44,881 nt of DNA from Escherichia phage SM_A2, in the sequence record PP920552.1; one strand, given 5' to 3'. The translations under genes and the position numbers were made by a program. The notes below the pieces were generated by a model, which made no database searches, was not told where the DNA came from, and saw nothing but the letters and a program-made list of their open reading frames with translations. Shown here one piece after another: positions 4,556-24,943 of this stretch; within the stretch, counting starts at the first letter, position 1; the number at the start of each line of letters is the position of its first letter.

Positions 4556-4856
4556 ATACGCAGCGATTGGATTGGTTATCGGCCTGGCGGTTGGCTTCTG
4601 GCTGGGGGACTCCTACCGTGCGGGCGTTGTGGCGAGAGCGGCGCAGGAAGCGCAAGCGAAAGCCCAACGGCAGCAAACTAAGGCTGTCGAGGGGACAGTG
4701 CAGGCCGAACAGGCCCGCGATGTGGAATACCGGACTATCACTAAAGAGGTTGTGAAATATGTTACGCGTCCTGACCGTACTGATTGCAGTTTTGATGATG
4801 AGCGCGTGCGGATCAAGCAACGTGCCATCGACGCCGCTAACCGAGTCGGTTTATAG
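4548..4856 (+). CDS. i-spanin (Rz-like inner-membrane spanin, putative)
   Basis: N-terminal TM helix YAAIGLVIGLAVGFWLG followed by a charged, coiled-coil-like periplasmic region; probable GTG start at 4548 with GGGGG 8 nt upstream (ORF track opens at TTG 4518); contains the embedded start of a lipoprotein gene in another frame. Confidence 0.5.
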   Translation: MIKYAAIGLVIGLAVGFWLGDSYRAGVVARAAQEAQAKAQRQQTKAVEGTVQAEQARDVEYRTITKEVVKYVTRPDRTDCSFDDERVRIKQRAIDAANRVGL

Positions 4857-4989
4857 ACCGCCTTGCACTTTTGAGAATGCCTCGGCAGATCCAGACGAAG
4901 ACTTGCTGGTTGATGTTAAAAATATGGAATGCGGGGCTAAGCTAAGGGCGCAAGTGCTGGAGTTGCAGAAAATAATTAGGGGGCCGTAA
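4759..4989 (+). CDS. o-spanin (Rz1-like outer-membrane lipoprotein, putative)
   Basis: ATG at 4759 with RBS AAGAGG; signal peptide MLRVLTVLIAVLMMSAC with lipobox-like Cys; short Pro/Cys-containing mature part; starts inside the i-spanin ORF in a different frame (overlapped Rz/Rz1 architecture). Confidence 0.55.
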   Translation: MLRVLTVLIAVLMMSACGSSNVPSTPLTESVYRPPCTFENASADPDEDLLVDVKNMECGAKLRAQVLELQKIIRGP

Positions 4990-5005
4990 TGGCCCCTTTT
5001 TTTTT
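4979..5005. terminator. bidirectional intrinsic terminator
   Basis: GGGGCC-GTAAT-GGCCCC hairpin followed by T9; lies between the convergent plus-strand spanin genes and minus-strand gene 5007-5771. Confidence 0.8.
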
Positions 5006-5006
5006 G

Positions 5007-5771
5007 TTAGCGCGGAATACCGCAGATTTCGTTTAACGTCTTCACGTCCAGCGCCACCGCCGTGGACTTCGGCTTGTCCTGGTATGGAATAAACTGTTCA
5101 ACTTCAGGCCACGCCTTGATCAGCTTCTTATCGGTATTGTGCATATCCAGCACGCCGGTAACAGTTAGTTTGAACGCATCATACTTAGCACGCAACTCGC
5201 GGCGGGCTTTGTCGTTACGGTCCAGGCGCTTACAGAAATCATGGTCTGCCGGGCAGTCTATACGACCGCGTGGCTTATATATCGGCAGCGCTTTCCCGTC
5301 GTCGTCGACTTCGCACACTGACGCTAACAAAATTTCCTCATACCCAGGCACAATATCGCCGAGGTCTGGAGACAGCTTATTCATGTATTTATACTCCCAG
5401 TATCCGCGATGTACTCGGAATCGGTACCCGTCTCCGCTCAATGACACGGTACGGACGTTTCCGCCTGCGTTGATTTCGAAAGTGGCGTCATAAACGCTGC
5501 CAATACCTTTTGGGCGGTCGGAGTCGAAACGATATGTAGCCTTATTGGTGTATACGCAAACGCCGTACATCTGCGACGGGTCATCGCCGATTGCTTCAAT
5601 GCGCGCACGTAGCTCGGCGAACGTATGAATGCCTACAGGCATACAGCGCAACGCAATGTCATACGCCAGGTCGCGAGAGTCCATCATGATTTTTTTGGCT
5701 TCAGTAGTGATTTCGTGGTCGCGCAGGATGTTAGCCAGAATCTGGTTTTTAATGTCTTTTGTCAGTCTCAT
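5007..5771 (-). CDS. hypothetical protein (accessory gene in head module)
   Basis: 254 aa ORF on the opposite strand to the surrounding structural genes; ATG at 5771 with GAGGA RBS; no motif recognised. Confidence 0.6.
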   Translation of the reverse strand: MRLTKDIKNQILANILRDHEITTEAKKIMMDSRDLAYDIALRCMPVGIHTFAELRARIEAIGDDPSQMYGVCVYTNKATYRFDSDRPKGIGSVYDATFEINAGGNVRTVSLSGDGYRFRVHRGYWEYKYMNKLSPDLGDIVPGYEEILLASVCEVDDDGKALPIYKPRGRIDCPADHDFCKRLDRNDKARRELRAKYDAFKLTVTGVLDMHNTDKKLIKAWPEVEQFIPYQDKPKSTAVALDVKTLNEICGIPR

Positions 5772-17393: not shown

Positions 17394-18001
17394 CCACATT
17401 TAAATTATACGGCGTTTTAGGACGTCGATTCGGTAAAGTGCATAAGCTGGACTGCTTCACTCCGGGCGAGGGTATCACCGGCCTGTGCGTGAAGTTACCC
17501 GGCTTACAGGACTTTCTAATGTCGGCCCACCTGGACAATATGATGTTCAAGGTGCGCAAAGGCGACCACACGATGACCGGCTATGATGAGCTGGGCGAGT
17601 TCCACGGCAACCGCGTAGTTACCATCGCGCCGGTTATGACGGGCGCAAAAAGAGGGTTGGGACAATTGCTGGCGGGTGTCGCGATCGTAGTGGCGTCGTT
17701 CTATACGGGCGGACTTGCTACTGCCGCTTTCGGGGCTTCGGCTGCAACCGCTGCCGCTATCGGAACGGCGACGTTTTCGTTCGGGATGTCGATGGCGCTG
17801 GGTGGCGTTATGCAATTGCTGTCGCCACAACCGAAAGGATTGCAGACAAGGCAGGACGTGGATAACAAAGCGTCGTACGCGTTCGGCGGGCCAGTGAATA
17901 CAACAGCGCAAGGCACGGCGCTTGGTGTATTATGGGGCGAGCGTGAGATCGGCGGCGCTATTATTTCAGCCGGAATCGTAACCGAGGACTTGAACGAATG
18001 A
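17384..18001 (+). CDS. tail assembly protein I-like
   Basis: 205 aa; C-terminal Ala/Gly-rich hydrophobic segment (GLATAAFGASAATAAAIGTATF) typical of gpI-family proteins; position between K-like and J-like genes. Confidence 0.8.
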   Translation: MAMTTFKLYGVLGRRFGKVHKLDCFTPGEGITGLCVKLPGLQDFLMSAHLDNMMFKVRKGDHTMTGYDELGEFHGNRVVTIAPVMTGAKRGLGQLLAGVAIVVASFYTGGLATAAFGASAATAAAIGTATFSFGMSMALGGVMQLLSPQPKGLQTRQDVDNKASYAFGGPVNTTAQGTALGVLWGEREIGGAIISAGIVTEDLNE

Positions 18002-21000
18002 CGATTATCTACGACGTCACAGGGCATAAAGGCGGCGGCGGCAAACAGCACACCCCGCAGGAGACGCCCGATAGCCTGCATTCGCTGGCTAAAATCCGCA
18101 TCTTGCTTGCGCTGGGGGAAGGGGAATTCGAAAGTATTACCAGCGCCAGCGAATTGCGGCAGCGTGTATATCTGGACGGGACACCGATCCAGAACGCGGA
18201 CTTGTCCGAAAACTTCCCCGGCGCGCGTGTGGAGTTCCGCCCCGGAACACAGCACCAGGATGTGATCCACGGATTTTCAGCGGTGGAAAGTGAGCAATCT
18301 GTCGGCGTAAAACTGGAAAACGGCACGCCGTGGGTGCGCCAGATTAACGACACCAGCTTGGACGCCGTGCGCATTCGCATCGGCATTCCGGCACTGTACA
18401 CAAACGAAGATAATGGCGACCTGGTGGGCGGGCGCATCGACTATAAGATCGTTGTGTATACGGATAACGCCGACCCGCGTGAGTTCAGATTCGCCGCCGT
18501 TGGTAAAACAATGTCGCTATATGAGCGCGACCACCGCATCGAATTACCTCCGAACGTTAACACCGGCTGGCGCGTGGAGGTGCACCGCATAACGGCAGAC
18601 TCCACATCGGCGAAAGTGGTTAATGATATCCGGGTGCAGTCCATCACTGAGATTATTGACGCCCGCCTGCGTTACCCGCTAACCGCGCTGTTGTTTGTGG
18701 AGTTCGACGCCAAAGCGTTCCAGAACATCCCGCGCGTGTCCATTAAGTGCAAAGGTCGCAAAGTTCTAATACCGAACAACTACGACCCGATCAATCATAC
18801 CTATGCCGGGTACTGGGACGGCACGTTTAAACGCGCATGGACGGATAACCCTGCGTGGCACTGGTACGATATTTGTATTACTGAGCGCTTCGGCCTCGGT
18901 CGGCGTATCAAACCGCAAATGCTAAACCGATACGCGCTCTACCAGATTGCACAGCGCTGCGATCAGTTGGTCAGCGACGGCAACGGCGGACGGGAAATCC
19001 GATTTAAGAATGATATGTACATCCAGTCGCAGACAGACGCCTGGACCGTGCTTAAGGATTTAGCTGCCATCTTCGCTGGGATGACCTGGTGGGGAAACCA
19101 AATGTTGAATATCGTCAGTGACCAACCGGTCGCAGCAGTGTCGCACACTATCACCAACGCCTCGGTTATTGATGGCCGATTCGACTACGCATCTGGCAGC
19201 CAGAAAACGCGGTATTCCACTTTCGCGGTAGCATACGGCAACCCGAAAAACCACTATGATGACGCTATCGCAACGGGCCAGCGCGTCGAACTGGTGCGCC
19301 GCCATAAGATTAACCGTCTTGATATTACGGCGATCGGCTGTACGCGCGAGTCAGAAGCGCAACGCCGGGGGCACTGGGCGCTAATCTCAAACCAGCTTGA
19401 CCAGCAAGTTAGTTTTAAGGTTGGCATGGAGGGGTTATTCTTTATCCCCGGTAGCGTAGTCGCGATCGCAGATACAAACATTTCTGGCGGATTCGAGACT
19501 CGTGGCGGACGACTGTTGTCGGACCCCGGAACGCGTACCGTGCTGAACACGGACAGCGAAATCACGTTCCGCCCTGGCGATAAGTTCCTGGTGCGCACCG
19601 ATAGCGGTAATGTGGAGACTCGCGAGATCGCCAGCGTCAACGGCAACAAGGTCACGCTAAAAACCGCACTGGATGCCGACCCGATTCCAGACCAACCGTT
19701 TTGCGTTGATGGCGATGATATCCAGTTGCAAAAATTCCGCATCACCGATCTGGAGTATGACGACTCTACGAGCACTTTCTCGGTGCGCGGGATTGAATAC
19801 AACGATAGCAAGTATGATGCCGTTGATAATGGCGCTCGCCTTGATCCTGGTATCTTCACGCAAGTGCCCGACGGGGTAATGAAGGGGCCGGAATCCGTGA
19901 CCATCACCCCGTCGCAGATTTCATCGCAAGGACAGCTAATCACCAACGTGGATATTGTTTTCCCGCCGGTGAAGGACGCCGTGGTGTATGAAATCCAGTG
20001 GCGACGCACCAGCTTGCAGAATATGGAAATCCAGTGGGGTAACGACTGGGTGAATATCCCGCGCACGGCATCGAACGGTGCGCACATCCCTAACGTGTTC
20101 TCAGGTAACTACCAGGCACGCGTCCGCGCAATTGGCATGGGCGAAATCTCGTCACCGTGGGTGTCTTCCGCAATCACGCCGGTTGAAGGACGCCTCGGCG
20201 GTCTTAACGCGCCTATCATCACCAACGCGATTTCGGGTCTGCACCAGATTCTATGGAAGTGGAACCACAACAACGCCGCTACGGATATCTCATACACCGA
20301 GCTTGAAGTGCGCAAGACGGGTGAGACGGAATGGAAATTTCTAACAAACGTCCCATATCCGGGGGCGGAGTATGCGCAAACATCGCTGGAGTTCGGAATT
20401 TACCAGCAGTTGCGCGCCCGTGTAGCGGATAAAATCGGCAACCTGTCGGACTGGTCGGCCCCGTTTGAAGGGCAGGTGAGTGACAAAGTTGACGAGTACA
20501 TGAAGGGGCTTGATGACGAGTTCTTGACTTCCGAGGATGGTAAACGCTTCCAGGAAGCAATCAACACGATCCCGCAGGGTATTTACGAGGCGATGCTCAC
20601 CGACGCGCAGCAATTGTTCAACGCCCGCGCCGAGTACAAGGGTATTTATGCGGAAATCTCGGTCGCGTATAACGTGGCGGCGGACGCCCACAAGGCGGTC
20701 GCTCAACTGGAGACGTTGATCGGCACGCGACTTGATGACGCGGAAGCTGCGATCCACACGTTGCAGACGGCGCAGAGTACGCAGGAACAAGCGTTCGCCC
20801 AGTACCAGCAAACTGTTGCCGCTAAGTTTTCGGAACAGGAAGCCGCCATCCAGTCAGTGCAAACGGCAACGGCGGACGTGGCAGGCGCACTGGCGGAGTA
20901 CAAGACCCAGGTCGCGGCACAGTTCGGTCAGCAGTCCGCCGCAATCGAGCAGAAGATGACGTCTACGTTTAACCACTCCGGTGGTAACGCTACATACAGC

Positions 21001-21417
21001 CTTAAGGCTGGCGTGACGTATAACGGGACTTACTACGATGCGGGTATGCAGATCTCCGTCGTGACGTCTGGCAACGCGGTTAAATCGCGTATTGCGTTCA
21101 AGGCGGACCAGTTCTACATCATGCATCCGTCCAATGGGACGCTGTCGTCTGCGTTTATTGTGGACGGTGGCGCGGTGTATATCGACACGGCACGCATCAA
21201 GAACGCGTCCATCAACTTCGCGCAGATAACAGACACGCTGCAATCGAATAACTACGACGGCAGCACGCGCGGCTGGCGCTTAGGGAAAGATGGAACGTTT
21301 ATCAACCTGGGCACCGGTAGCGGCGGCGGGATGAAACAGACGAACACAAGAATCAGCGTGAAGGACGGAAACGGCGTTCTCCGCGTGCAGATTGGTGAGC
21401 TTACTGATAGCTGGTAG
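17998..21417 (+). CDS. central tail fibre / host specificity protein J-like
   Basis: 1139 aa ORF following the L-K-I genes; size and position typical of the gpJ family. Confidence 0.9.
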   Translation: MTIIYDVTGHKGGGGKQHTPQETPDSLHSLAKIRILLALGEGEFESITSASELRQRVYLDGTPIQNADLSENFPGARVEFRPGTQHQDVIHGFSAVESEQSVGVKLENGTPWVRQINDTSLDAVRIRIGIPALYTNEDNGDLVGGRIDYKIVVYTDNADPREFRFAAVGKTMSLYERDHRIELPPNVNTGWRVEVHRITADSTSAKVVNDIRVQSITEIIDARLRYPLTALLFVEFDAKAFQNIPRVSIKCKGRKVLIPNNYDPINHTYAGYWDGTFKRAWTDNPAWHWYDICITERFGLGRRIKPQMLNRYALYQIAQRCDQLVSDGNGGREIRFKNDMYIQSQTDAWTVLKDLAAIFAGMTWWGNQMLNIVSDQPVAAVSHTITNASVIDGRFDYASGSQKTRYSTFAVAYGNPKNHYDDAIATGQRVELVRRHKINRLDITAIGCTRESEAQRRGHWALISNQLDQQVSFKVGMEGLFFIPGSVVAIADTNISGGFETRGGRLLSDPGTRTVLNTDSEITFRPGDKFLVRTDSGNVETREIASVNGNKVTLKTALDADPIPDQPFCVDGDDIQLQKFRITDLEYDDSTSTFSVRGIEYNDSKYDAVDNGARLDPGIFTQVPDGVMKGPESVTITPSQISSQGQLITNVDIVFPPVKDAVVYEIQWRRTSLQNMEIQWGNDWVNIPRTASNGAHIPNVFSGNYQARVRAIGMGEISSPWVSSAITPVEGRLGGLNAPIITNAISGLHQILWKWNHNNAATDISYTELEVRKTGETEWKFLTNVPYPGAEYAQTSLEFGIYQQLRARVADKIGNLSDWSAPFEGQVSDKVDEYMKGLDDEFLTSEDGKRFQEAINTIPQGIYEAMLTDAQQLFNARAEYKGIYAEISVAYNVAADAHKAVAQLETLIGTRLDDAEAAIHTLQTAQSTQEQAFAQYQQTVAAKFSEQEAAIQSVQTATADVAGALAEYKTQVAAQFGQQSAAIEQKMTSTFNHSGGNATYSLKAGVTYNGTYYDAGMQISVVTSGNAVKSRIAFKADQFYIMHPSNGTLSSAFIVDGGAVYIDTARIKNASINFAQITDTLQSNNYDGSTRGWRLGKDGTFINLGTGSGGGMKQTNTRISVKDGNGVLRVQIGELTDSW

Positions 21418-21420
21418 TAT

Positions 21421-21441
21421 AGGGGCTTCGGCCCCTTTTTA
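21421..21441 (+). terminator. intrinsic terminator after J-like gene
   Basis: GGGGC-TTCG-GCCCC hairpin followed by T5. Confidence 0.8.
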
Positions 21442-21453
21442 ACGAGGTTATTT

Positions 21454-21756
21454 ATGGCATTCGGTATCGCAACGTGGGACGCGCAAGGACGCCCAAACAA
21501 CTACGGCATTAAACCGGTAAGCGTGATCGGAAGGATTCATCTTGCGGAAGGACAAAAATCAGGCGCATGGTCATTCCCTGTACCGGCGGGGATGAAGGTC
21601 GGATACGTGGTCGCACTGGATAAAGGCGCGGTCGGGCCAGGACGCAGAATATCTGCCAGCGGGAACACTATCACGGTTTCCGCGGCAAGTGCAGTAGGTG
21701 GCGGGGTTTACTCCGCATCTGAATGTGACGTTATTGTTTTTGTGGAGCGAGCATAA
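21454..21756 (+). CDS. hypothetical protein (tail-region)
   Basis: 100 aa ORF with ACGAGG RBS; no motif recognised. Confidence 0.5.
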   Translation: MAFGIATWDAQGRPNNYGIKPVSVIGRIHLAEGQKSGAWSFPVPAGMKVGYVVALDKGAVGPGRRISASGNTITVSAASAVGGGVYSASECDVIVFVERA

Positions 21757-22430
21757 TGGCTAATTACGGCGCGTTGATTGACTTACCAAACGGCAACCCG
21801 TTTATCACGCCAGAATCGACGCCGTTTTGTCTCTTCCGCCGTGTGGTTGTTGGGTCTTCGGCTAACGGCACTGCGCAGTCGGCGGCTGCCGATATTAATT
21901 TGGGTGGTGACTACCCTGCAATAGCGTTTGTTAAAACTACGCACACCGCCCAGCCGACCGTCGTAGGGTCTTCTCGCGTTGGTAATGTGGTGAAGGTGAG
22001 CGCCAGCAATCCATTCGGGCAGGGCTTCACGATGACGGCTTACATCTTTGCTATATTCCCACAGACCCTTCCGCGGTGGGGCTTCGCTATTTGGGATAAG
22101 ACGGGGAAGCTAGTGCTTACTAATGAGAGTCGCGTACTAAGTGATTTAGTTACCGTCGGATCGCCAGGCGCTAACGGGGGGATTAACATTGACCAGACGC
22201 TAAACGGCAGCTACGCCGTCGCTCCGGGCATATTGGGGTCTACGCTGATCCGGTTTTTTGTGCAGGGCCAGCCGCAAGTAATATCGGTAACGGCGTACAC
22301 GGGGGCCAGATTTGATGGGTCGCGAACTCGTATATCGGCAGCGTCGTCGGGGAACGCCACGGGGGATGTGGTGGGGTATACTAACAACGGCAACGCGATT
22401 ATGGCGATTAACACCGCCAATTACGATTGA
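21756..22430 (+). CDS. hypothetical tail-associated protein
   Basis: 224 aa ORF, ATGA-coupled to the previous gene; Gly/Ser/Thr-rich; no motif recognised. Confidence 0.5.
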   Translation: MANYGALIDLPNGNPFITPESTPFCLFRRVVVGSSANGTAQSAAADINLGGDYPAIAFVKTTHTAQPTVVGSSRVGNVVKVSASNPFGQGFTMTAYIFAIFPQTLPRWGFAIWDKTGKLVLTNESRVLSDLVTVGSPGANGGINIDQTLNGSYAVAPGILGSTLIRFFVQGQPQVISVTAYTGARFDGSRTRISAASSGNATGDVVGYTNNGNAIMAINTANYD

Positions 22431-22433
22431 AGA

Positions 22434-22451
22434 AAGCCCCGAAAGGGGCTT
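22434..22451. terminator. hairpin between convergent genes (weak bidirectional terminator)
   Basis: AAGCCCC-GAAA-GGGGCTT perfect hairpin; the T-tract is weak on both sides. Confidence 0.5.
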
Positions 22452-22668
22452 ATTTGCAGGTTGTGCTTTTGAAGTGGTCGACCGACACATACTGGAAGTT
22501 GAACGGATACCCCGCCTTGAGCATTTTGTGCCCGCTAAAGTCGGTGACACCGAACACCGGTACAGAATACTCCATACCACTATTCACATATGTTGCGTCG
22601 CAGATTTTTGATGGCATGTCGGCGCAGCCGGTCAAAAGAACAGCACAAATCATAATTAAGGTTTTCAT
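22450..22668 (-). CDS. small lipoprotein (Cor/Llp-like superinfection exclusion candidate)
   Basis: ATG at 22668 with AGGAGAT RBS; signal peptide MKTLIMICAVLLTGC with classical lipobox LLTG-C; about 57-aa mature part; minus-strand with own promoter, between J-like and tail fibre genes. Confidence 0.6.
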   Translation of the reverse strand: MKTLIMICAVLLTGCADMPSKICDATYVNSGMEYSVPVFGVTDFSGHKMLKAGYPFNFQYVSVDHFKSTTCK

Positions 22669-22699
22669 GTTATCATCTCCTGTATTGGGTTGAGTTTTA

Positions 22700-22727
22700 G
22701 TATTACACCGCTCAACCACGAATGCAA
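22700..22727 (-). promoter_or_regulatory. sigma70-like promoter with ATTGGTTGCA motif (leftward, lipoprotein gene)
   Basis: Read on the minus strand: ATTGGTTGCAT supplies TTGCAT (-35), 16-nt spacer, TAATAC (-10, fwd 22700-22705), about 30 nt upstream of the lipoprotein ATG. Confidence 0.5.
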
Positions 22728-22747
22728 CCAATTTATGAGGATTTAGC

Positions 22748-24341
22748 TATGGCAGCGGGTACTCTATCCGTAACGAATAACAGCAAGGCGGTTGTAGGGG
22801 TCGGCACAACGTTTACCGCGTACAAGGCTGGTGACTTCTTAACGCTGGTGGTAGGACAAGTCCCCTACACCGTAGCGATCGCGTCCATTGAAAGCGCAAC
22901 CGCGCTCACGCTGGTGTTACCGTTCGACGGCCCAACGGCAACCGGCCTTGCGTGGGACGGCGTTAAACGCGATACCATGTCACTGGCAACGATGGGCGTT
23001 ACCGTCCAGGCACAGAAAGCATTGCGTTTGATGATTGCAGATGAAAACAACTGGCGCGCAATCTTCGGCGACGACGAGCAGATCACGGTAACGCTGCCGA
23101 ATGGGCAAGTCATGCAGGGTATGTCATGGGGATATCTGTCACAGTTAATGAAGCAGATCGACCCGGAGGAAATTCTCAACCTGCAACAGCAAGCCGCCGC
23201 GTCTGAAGCCGCCGCGAAAGGATTCCGTAACGAGGCCGAAGGCTTCAAGAATGACACTAACACGATTAAGACGCAGACTAACCAGATTAAGACGGATACC
23301 GGTGCTATTCGCGACCAGGCCAACACCGCGAAGACTGCCGCGCAAGATGCCCGAGATGCCGCGCAAGATGCCCGAGATGCCGCGCTGGGATACCGGGATG
23401 AAGCTGAACAATTCAAGAATGAGATCGCCACGTCGCAATTTCCAAAGCTGGGCAGCAAGAATAGATTCACACAGCCGCAGGAGTTTTTCGCACCATACCC
23501 AGGCCTCAACCTGACGTCTACTGCCGTGGGTGAGGATTATCTTGGTCGAACTATCCTGATTGAGAACATCACAGGCAATAGGCTTAACTTCTTCTACACG
23601 AAGCAAGGCGACAACACCGGGCGCTACACTATCAGTCTTCCGAAGCCAGAAAATACGCAGGTTATGACGATCGGCCTTGATGGTGGTTTATCGCTTAACG
23701 GCGACTCATATAACGCCGGGGAAGGTAGCGGAGTAGACTTCAGTGTCGGGCAGCAAGGGTGGCGTCAGGTAGCAGGACCGTGGTCAAACGGCCCGATAAG
23801 CGGCAATATGTACGGAGCATTGTTCTCGCAATGCGTGCAGGGGCTAAACGTTGGCCCCTACGGTGCCAACGGAACGCAGGGCAGATGGTTTATGCAGCGC
23901 TTTTACGACACATCAGCGAATATCTTCACGCGCGTGCAAACTAACGCGACACCGTGGCAAAACTGGTATAAAGTCACCACGTCCGCGGTATCGGATGAAC
24001 GCCTGAAGGATATCAAGGGCAATCTCAATGTGGAGGGTGCACTGGATAACATCAACCGCATGGAGTTTAAACTCTTCTCATTTAAAAATGAGAAGTCAGA
24101 AAGCAAACAGCCTATTACGCGTCGCGGTGTTATCAGCCAGCAGATCCGTCTTATTGACAAAGAGTACACAACCGAAGTAGGCGGATTCTACCACTTGGAT
24201 CAGACCCCGATGCTGTTAGATGGCCTGGCGGCGATCAAAGCATTGCGTGCGCGTGACGAAGCGAATAAGGCTGAAATCGCGGAATTGAAAGCTGCCGTTG
24301 AGGATTTGAAAGCCGCGGTCGCGGCACTGACAAAAGCATAA
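22748..24341 (+). CDS. tail fibre protein with C-terminal intramolecular chaperone domain
   Basis: ATG 22748 with GAGGA RBS (ORF track opens at 22722); coiled-coil segment with a 21-bp tandem repeat (AQDARDA x2); C-terminal SDERLKDIKG-type motif typical of self-cleaving chaperone domains. Confidence 0.8.
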
Positions 24342-24347
24342 TGAGAA

Positions 24348-24369
24348 GGGGCCGTATGGCCCCTTTTTT
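24348..24369. terminator. bidirectional intrinsic terminator
   Basis: GGGGCC-GTAT-GGCCCC hairpin followed by T6; between the tail fibre gene and the first minus-strand gene. Confidence 0.8.
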
Positions 24370-24943
24370 AGTTTGAGTTTTCCCAGTCCATTTTGCGCCG
24401 CACTAGCGGGCTTTCGTAATACTCCTTCCCATCCACTTCCACTAAGGGCCAGTCATTAACAATGACGTAAGGCTCTGCGATATCCTCGATCACGCCGTGC
24501 GCGCTATGTTGCCCGAAATCTACACCCACCAGGATAACCCCGGCAACTCGACGAGCAAGATATTCGCGGGCGCAACGCGCCTCTACCAGTCCGCGACGGA
24601 TGCCGCTGGTAGCTTTGACCTCGTAGGTCCAGACGGCATCGATCACATGCTCGCGGAAGTCGGGGCCGGATTTAACCTTGCGCTTGCCAACCATGATAAT
24701 ATCGCCGCGGTCGATAGTGTTAGCGCTAAACAGGCCGGTACGCATTAGCAAACCTTGCGGGATACAGCTACGCCCGCCCGCCTGCCCTTCGAGGTACATG
24801 CCTGCAAACATTTCGCCCAGCACACCGACGAGTCTGCTTTGCTTGCACGCGTCGGATTTATACCGCCACTGGTCAAACTCGATGCTTGCTATCATTGCCG
24901 CCAGGTGGAATTGTTTACCAGATATTTCATATTCGCCGTACAT
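24368..24943 (-). CDS. hypothetical protein with possible PD-(D/E)XK nuclease signature
   Basis: 191 aa; segment SGPDFREHVIDAVWTYEVKATSG fits PD-x12-E-V-K. Weak, motif-only assignment. Confidence 0.35.
   Translation of the reverse strand: MYGEYEISGKQFHLAAMIASIEFDQWRYKSDACKQSRLVGVLGEMFAGMYLEGQAGGRSCIPQGLLMRTGLFSANTIDRGDIIMVGKRKVKSGPDFREHVIDAVWTYEVKATSGIRRGLVEARCAREYLARRVAGVILVGVDFGQHSAHGVIEDIAEPYVIVNDWPLVEVDGKEYYESPLVRRKMDWENSN

Follow-up and report, generated by a model that had tools for sequence, protein, structure and literature searches.

The minus-strand gene at 22450-22668 of the window (the whole 44,881-nucleotide stretch of DNA analyzed here) is, with high confidence, a cor orthologue in a virulent Dhillonvirus coliphage, and its product would block the outer-membrane transporter FhuA; this confidence applies to identity and proposed mechanism taken together. 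In Dhillonvirus, cor is known already and annotated as a matter of routine, and the support for the present assignment is stronger than the initial annotation claimed. That annotation had put forward a Cor/Llp-like superinfection exclusion candidate, a proposal now backed by PHROG 1119, NCBIfam NF047972, tblastn, the synteny of the surrounding cassette, and a predicted fold like that of Llp.

The coding sequence, identified by its frame and its family matches, runs on the minus strand from an ATG at 22668-22666 to a TAA at 22452-22450 (22450..22668, stop included). It encodes a 72-amino acid precursor, MKTLIMICAVLLTGCADMPSKICDATYVNSGMEYSVPVFGVTDFSGHKMLKAGYPFNFQYVSVDHFKSTTCK, whose N-terminal part reads MKTLIMICAVLLTGC followed by ADMPSK. 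A lipoprotein signal peptide (residues 1-14) and a lipidated Cys15, encoded at 22624..22668 on the minus strand, are predicted from a reading of the sequence: Lys2 is followed by a hydrophobic core and by the lipobox L12-T13-G14-C15 (22635-22624), with Ala at +2. This is the type II signal peptide of the Cor family, MKTLIMICAVLLTG followed by the lipobox Cys, the lipidation itself being predicted. The residue after the lipobox Cys sets Lol sorting (the +2 rule), so the Ala at this position predicts sorting of the protein to the outer membrane.

Several results confirm that the ORF with its LLTG-C lipobox is real. A regular expression for such N-termini, run over the whole window, matched cor and one out-of-frame ORF inside J and nothing else, and the same expression found no match in 50 shuffles of the sequence; this rarity indicates that the lipoprotein ORF is a genuine observation. 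Eight Dhillonvirus alleles of cor gave a dN/dS near 0.07 (dS 0.6-1.2), a sign of strong purifying selection and of a real coding gene. The 72-residue minus-strand precursor with lipobox LLTG-C, as first described, is thus borne out by frame, lipobox, regular expression scan, and dN/dS. A 93-residue version starting at a TTG (22731) was rejected: every homologue begins at the ATG, the ribosome binding site is placed for that ATG, and in the longer product the signal peptide would be buried.

The product was matched to the PHROG 1119 profile, “Cor superinfection exclusion protein,” with E=7.9e-27 (residues 1-72 on profile positions 1-75 of 78). It also matched the NCBIfam equivalog NF047972, “phage exclusion lipoprotein Cor,” at 59 bits, where the curated cut-off is 31 bits (residues 2-71 on positions 2-76 of 78). 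Full-length tblastn alignments were obtained with the Cor proteins of T1 (50.7% identity, 2e-14), phi80 (40%, 9e-10), HK022 (42%), and N15 (39%). Pfam has no Cor family, and the sole match there was a spurious, sub-threshold one to a herpesvirus family. A homologue search with the single sequence returned six close relatives, and an alignment was needed as the query to reach a wider set. In the resulting 66-member Cor alignment, M1, C15, C23, A52, G53, P55, and C71 are invariant, while G14, G31, V36, Y54, F56, V61, and F66 are nearly so. The signature of the mature Cor domain, two Cys, each close to one end of the mature chain, and an AGYPF motif, is present in the window protein, and many of the homologues carry the name Cor from NCBI or UniRef.

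The match had originally been described as one of architecture and context rather than sequence identity, which was too cautious, since PHROG, NCBIfam, and tblastn all make the protein a sequence homologue of Cor. Judged by its sequence, the window protein is a member of the Cor family and not a mere look-alike. The exact protein is absent from a collection of 15 billion protein sequences, the best identities to known proteins being 94%, and we read the window cor as a new allele of a known gene. Exclusion of FhuA-dependent phages and inactivation of FhuA transport are known for the Cor of temperate E. coli phages and prophages, at least as these are summarized from Uc-Mass 2004 and Hernandez-Sanchez 2008 in bioRxiv 10.64898/2026.03.26.714494. 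Superinfection exclusion by the window allele would be predicted from its family.

The genes around cor point to its likely target. The window is a Dhillonvirus genome, and its size fits a complete genome of the genus; over the whole window (1-44881), no tRNA gene was found, nor did any Rfam family reach its gathering score. A search with the region 21400-24400 matched 151 phage records, Escherichia phages of Dhillonvirus for the most part, of which JLBYU60 and EC115 were nearest at 91-93%. The stretch from 17.4 to 23.3 kb is collinear with JLBYU60, with 94% DNA identity over window positions 17400-23315. On the plus strand, the J-like central tail fibre gene (17998..21417, PHROG 31) is followed by an N15 gp22-like gene for 100 residues (21454..21756, PHROG 557, E=4.8e-32) and an N15 gp23-like gene for 224 residues (21756..22430, PHROG 425, E=4.6e-70). 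The latter two belong to the FhuA-linked cassette, and the gp23-like product is a candidate receptor-binding component. The order J, gp22-like, gp23-like, cor is common to the window, T1, phi80, N15, and HK022. The lateral tail fibre gene (22749..24341, plus strand, PHROG 1980, E=1.5e-118) is divergent from cor and lies outside the cassette. Of the position first given to cor, between J and the tail fibre gene, one side holds: the tail fibre gene does adjoin cor, whereas J is separated from it by the two plus-strand genes (21454-21756 and 21756-22430).

The gp22-like and gp23-like products (21454-22430) matched no Pfam or NCBIfam family. By eye, neither a signal peptide nor a hydrophobic segment is seen in them, and they resemble soluble receptor-binding components of the tail tip more than membrane proteins. 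The start of the tail fibre gene is most likely 22749, a position taken from the JLBYU60 annotation. An ATG at 22722 was rejected as its start; this ATG, missing in relatives, merely comes from reading the cor -35 hexamer TTGCAT on the opposite strand. The N-terminal part of the lateral tail fibre is conserved and the distal part variable, similarity to relatives being lost at about 23300-24300. The protein carries a C-terminal Peptidase_S74 intramolecular chaperone domain (residues 415-467, E=2e-7).

This gene set has been named the “cor cassette,” and the full cassette was found in ten Drexlerviridae/Dhillonvirus phages of the BASEL collection, all of them FhuA users (PMC13164509). JLBYU60 was shown by experiment to depend on FhuA, with loop L8 of the receptor needed (PMC10373560). 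The gp22-like and gp23-like genes of the window are 98-100% identical to those of JLBYU60 at the nucleotide level. This near identity of the cassette with that of an FhuA-dependent phage leads us to predict FhuA both as the receptor of the window phage and as the target of its Cor.

The structural comparison suggests how such a protein could work. AlphaFold2, run on the 66-sequence alignment, gave a model with four beta-strands and a pLDDT of 92-94 over residues 21-70. When this model was searched with Foldseek, T5 Llp (8a60_B) ranked second with a probability of 1.00. A single-sequence search of the PDB with the cor product did not find Llp or anything meaningful, but the Cor profile searched against PDB sequences had Llp as its best match (E=0.009). 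A direct hhalign comparison of Cor with Llp gave a probability of 90%, E=1.6e-6, and 25% identity. That alignment pairs C23 and C71 of Cor with Cys11 and Cys58 of Llp, and the invariant AGYPF segment of Cor with Llp Ile39-Trp46. A Cys11-Cys58 disulfide has been described in Llp, where Ile39-Trp46 sits in the position otherwise held by the FhuA switch helix (PMC9586334). In Llp-bound FhuA, EL7 and EL8 are folded inwards, so that the receptor-binding protein clashes (PMC9586334). EL8, folded inwards in that structure (PMC9586334), is the loop needed by these Dhillonviruses (PMC10373560). Two recent papers, including bioRxiv 10.64898/2026.03.26.714494, place Cor and Llp in one structural family. 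The model of the window protein predicts an Llp-type fold, a small beta-barrel whose termini are tied by a disulfide. Cor and Llp belong to the same superfamily and would work alike, but Cor is not an Llp orthologue.

Because the fold, the disulfide, and the AGYPF segment map onto Llp, periplasmic jamming of FhuA is the mechanism we have chosen, with target and mode of action inferred from family membership. After export by the Sec pathway, the 72-residue precursor would receive its lipid on Cys15 and lose its signal peptide to signal peptidase II. The 58-residue mature domain would form a small beta-barrel that a Cys23-Cys71 disulfide closes, and would bind the periplasmic face of FhuA, a TonB-dependent transporter and presumably the phage's own terminal receptor. 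Like T5 Llp, Cor would lock the FhuA plug in a non-native state, causing EL7 and EL8 to fold inwards. The receptor-binding proteins of the tail tip would then be unable to dock. The infected cell and its debris would stop adsorbing the window phage and other FhuA-dependent phages, and uptake of FhuA ligands would cease as well.

Cor might instead exclude FhuA-dependent phages without jamming the receptor directly, by way of other outer-membrane proteins of the OmpA/OmpC type or through a block after adsorption. Cor was reported to interact with other outer-membrane proteins, as far as the citation of Arguijo-Hernandez 2018 in PMC13164509 goes, and the molecular mechanism of Cor itself was described as not yet elucidated (bioRxiv 10.64898/2026.03.26.714494). 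The jamming model is also carried over from Llp, a protein just 22-25% identical. Against this, the fold, the disulfide, and the conserved AGYPF loop of Cor map onto the very elements of Llp that contact FhuA, and we regard an indirect mechanism as unlikely.

Still less probable, to the point of being a slim chance, is that this Cor-family lipoprotein blocks another outer-membrane transporter, such as BtuB or a different TonB-dependent protein, rather than FhuA. Cor-like proteins do occur in BtuB-dependent Markadamsvirinae and Tempevirinae (PMC13164509), so the target does not follow from membership in the family alone, and the mature part of the window cor has only 74-78% DNA identity to that of FhuA-dependent JLBYU60 next to genes that are 98-100% identical. 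The cor product is nevertheless still 85% identical to JLBYU60 Cor in amino acids, and the Cor proteins of T1 and phi80, 40-51% identical to it, act on FhuA. The full cassette (PHROG 557, PHROG 425, and cor) was reported with FhuA users only, and the Cor-like proteins of BtuB phages occur without the gp22 and gp23 partner genes (PMC13164509). FhuA thus remains the predicted target.

A role as an Rz1-like o-spanin or other lysis lipoprotein instead of a receptor blocker is barely conceivable and was excluded: the protein is a small, predicted outer-membrane lipoprotein with a very weak match of its signal peptide only to PHROG 456, “Rz-like spanin” (E=0.35), but its strong matches go to Cor (PHROG 1119 and NF047972), no i-spanin gene or other lysis gene adjoins cor, whose neighbours are tail genes, the holin and lysozyme genes of the relative JLBYU60 lie elsewhere, and the window has a separate o-spanin-type lipoprotein ORF at 4759-4989. 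That second small lipoprotein ORF (plus strand, 76 residues, beginning MLRVLTVLIAVLMMSAC) is collinear with a pair of genes annotated in JLBYU60 as conserved exported protein and spanin (4623-5064), and is probably the o-spanin.

The expression signals of cor are those of a gene transcribed by itself. It is the sole minus-strand gene between two plus-strand genes, and therefore cannot have a transcript in common with its neighbours. A Shine-Dalgarno sequence, AGGAG (22677..22681, minus strand), lies 8 nt upstream of the ATG and reads AGGAG or AGGGG in 13 related loci. Farther upstream is a candidate sigma-70 promoter (22699..22727, minus strand), with conserved elements and a function that we infer: TTGCAT at 22727-22722, a 17-nt spacer, TG at 22707-22706, then t, and AATACT at 22704-22699. 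The elements agree with the consensus at 7 of 12 positions, plus the TG of an extended -10, and the -10 ends 30 nt before the ATG. The 13 related Dhillonvirus loci agree without exception in the TG and the -10 hexamer and differ in the spacer, the “n” of TGn, and position 6 of the -35. As a whole, the intergenic region is conserved only slightly better than the flanking coding DNA, which makes its conservation weak evidence. A consensus promoter scan did not call these elements. The single “promoter” that the scan placed on the minus strand (22676-22649) overlaps the cor start codon and was dismissed. Of the initial claim that cor has its own promoter and ribosome binding site, the latter is borne out by AGGAG at 22681-22677; for the promoter, the conserved elements speak in favor, and 7/12 agreement with the consensus and the missing scanner call speak against. 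The likely picture is a weak but conserved promoter of the extended -10 type, its activity presumed from its sequence.

Directly 3′ of the cor stop codon is a hairpin, AAGCCCC-TTTC-GGGGCTT (22434..22451), a candidate bidirectional intrinsic terminator on the grounds of its fold and conserved stem. The centroid structure has -12.1 kcal/mol (z -2.0), and the minimum free energy of a 51-nt stretch is -12.5. In relatives, the stem of this hairpin between cor and the gp23-like gene is conserved and the loop variable. The hairpin faces both convergent genes, gp23-like and cor. A terminator scan did not call it (22451-22434), and its T-run is imperfect. In our model, host RNA polymerase would transcribe cor early and alone from the sigma-70 type promoter, in a direction opposed to that of the late tail genes, and the transcript would end at the terminator common to cor and the convergent gp23-like gene.

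A second hairpin, GGGGCC-ATAC-GGCCCC, is seen at 24345-24362, where the tail fibre gene converges with a leftward gene (24368-24943); an A-run and a T-rich stretch flank it. It was not called by the consensus scan either and is likely a bidirectional terminator. It separates the leftward gene block from the tail fibre gene, which argues against read-through into cor; production of cor mRNA by read-through from that block was judged unlikely on this account.

Comparison with sister phages suggests that cor sits at the edge of an exchangeable unit. In the sister Dhillonviruses SO-1, EK99P-1, and slur05, the cor slot is occupied by an Rtp45-like gene. In five sister loci (L012-L016, for example L013:2938-4190), the promoter, the 5′ untranslated region, and the signal peptide up to Cys-Ala are almost identical to those of the window base for base, and complete divergence follows. 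The mature domain encoded in these five loci matches Rtp45, the LptDE exclusion lipoprotein (9rps_D, E=1.5e-8), and a 324-residue ORF follows the Rtp45-like gene on the same strand. About 60 phage records hold the LptD-type lipoprotein at 90% identity or more. When the DNA of the cor signal peptide was searched against viral contigs, 11 contigs were found, and a repeat scan returned the same set. At the other end, J similarity to the LptD-type Dhillonviruses stops at 21256-21293, mostly at 21278-21293, varying by locus; the last ~42 codons of J (from ~21290) belong to the exchangeable receptor cassette. The joints of the cassette (21290-22620) thus lie ~42 codons before the end of J and right after the lipobox Cys-Ala of cor.

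Exchange has also occurred inside the FhuA-type cassette. Window positions 22430-22620 were compared with L001, L007, L009, and L010. The mature part of cor has 74-78% DNA identity to JLBYU60, L009, and L010, phages with gp22 and gp23 genes 98-100% identical to those of the window. It has 91% identity to L007, where the gp22 and gp23 genes are only ~50-70% identical to the window's. With a mature cor of the L007 kind and gp22 and gp23 genes of the JLBYU60 kind, a breakpoint at the terminator common to both genes is indicated, and the alignments identify the window as a recombinant within the FhuA-type cassette. The deep cor dS (0.6-1.2) inside cassettes that are 98-100% identical could reflect competition among phages sharing FhuA.

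These observations can be joined into a broader reading, to which we give slightly less than an even chance: the cor slot is a socket with fixed expression and export signals, into which receptor cassettes are swapped and in which cor alleles reassort independently. The Cor mature domain, directed at FhuA, may be swapped for an Rtp45-like one, directed at LptDE, along with the matching receptor-binding genes. The second breakpoint, at the terminator, may let cor reassort independently of the gp22 and gp23 alleles.

Cor is a well-described, textbook receptor-blocking lipoprotein, annotated routinely in Dhillonvirus genomes and present in dozens of relatives, and published comparative work has already linked the three-gene cor cassette to FhuA use. 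The practical value of the present assignment lies in annotation, as the cassette predicts that the window phage uses FhuA. Cells expressing this cor should resist T1, T5, phi80, and related phages. For host-range engineering in small siphoviruses, a joint placed exactly after the lipobox and the reassorting alleles of cor and the receptor-binding genes may be of help.

The closest known systems are the Cor proteins of other Dhillonviruses (JLBYU60, EC115, Kenya-K19, Gluttony, and others), annotated “super-infection exclusion protein.” These are the same gene in the same position and orientation, with the promoter region and terminator as in the window and amino acid identities of 81-94%. The window protein differs from them in having LLTGC instead of LLSGC, as well as D17, T42, and K51. 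The window as a whole differs in its new combination of an L007-type mature cor with JLBYU60-type gp22 and gp23 genes.

The Cor of T1 (Tunavirus, NC_005833 ST30) is 51% identical and has the same length, lipobox, two Cys, and AGYPF motif. As in the window, T1 cor is inverted relative to the J, gp22, and gp23 genes. Its promoter is sigma-70-like (TTGCAA-17-TACAAT) and ends 29 nt before the ATG, compared with 30 nt in the window. An annotated terminator with a GCCCC/GGGGC stem lies in the same place, common to cor and the gp23-like gene. T1 cor is co-directional with the recombination genes upstream of it, whereas the window cor is a single-gene unit, with the tail fibre gene intervening.

The Cor proteins of temperate phi80, HK022, and N15, the original phage exclusion lipoprotein of NF047972, are 39-43% identical and are encoded in the same three-gene cassette after J. 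They have 77-78 residues, with a 3-residue insertion before the first Cys, where the window Cor has 72. In these phages, cor is co-directional with J, gp22, and gp23 and is a moron expressed from the prophage, whereas the window phage is virulent and its cor is inverted.

The Rtp45-like lipoprotein of LptD-targeting small siphoviruses (PDB 9RPS chain D) differs from Cor in its mature domain and its target, LptDE. The gene arrangement differs too, in that the gene for a 324-residue receptor-binding protein comes after the Rtp45-like gene on the same strand, while the window cor faces the gp22-like and gp23-like genes. T5 Llp (PDB 8A60 chain B, 7QJF) is 22-25% identical to the window Cor, a likeness seen at the profile level only; the Llp proteins of T5 and BF23 have no clear pairwise sequence similarity to it, and Llp falls short of the Cor family models just as Cor does in the reverse direction. 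The partner of T5 Llp is the receptor-binding protein pb5, unrelated to that of the window. Finally, the exclusion gene runs opposite to the receptor-binding genes in virulent T1, T5, and the window phage, and is co-directional with them in the temperate phages.
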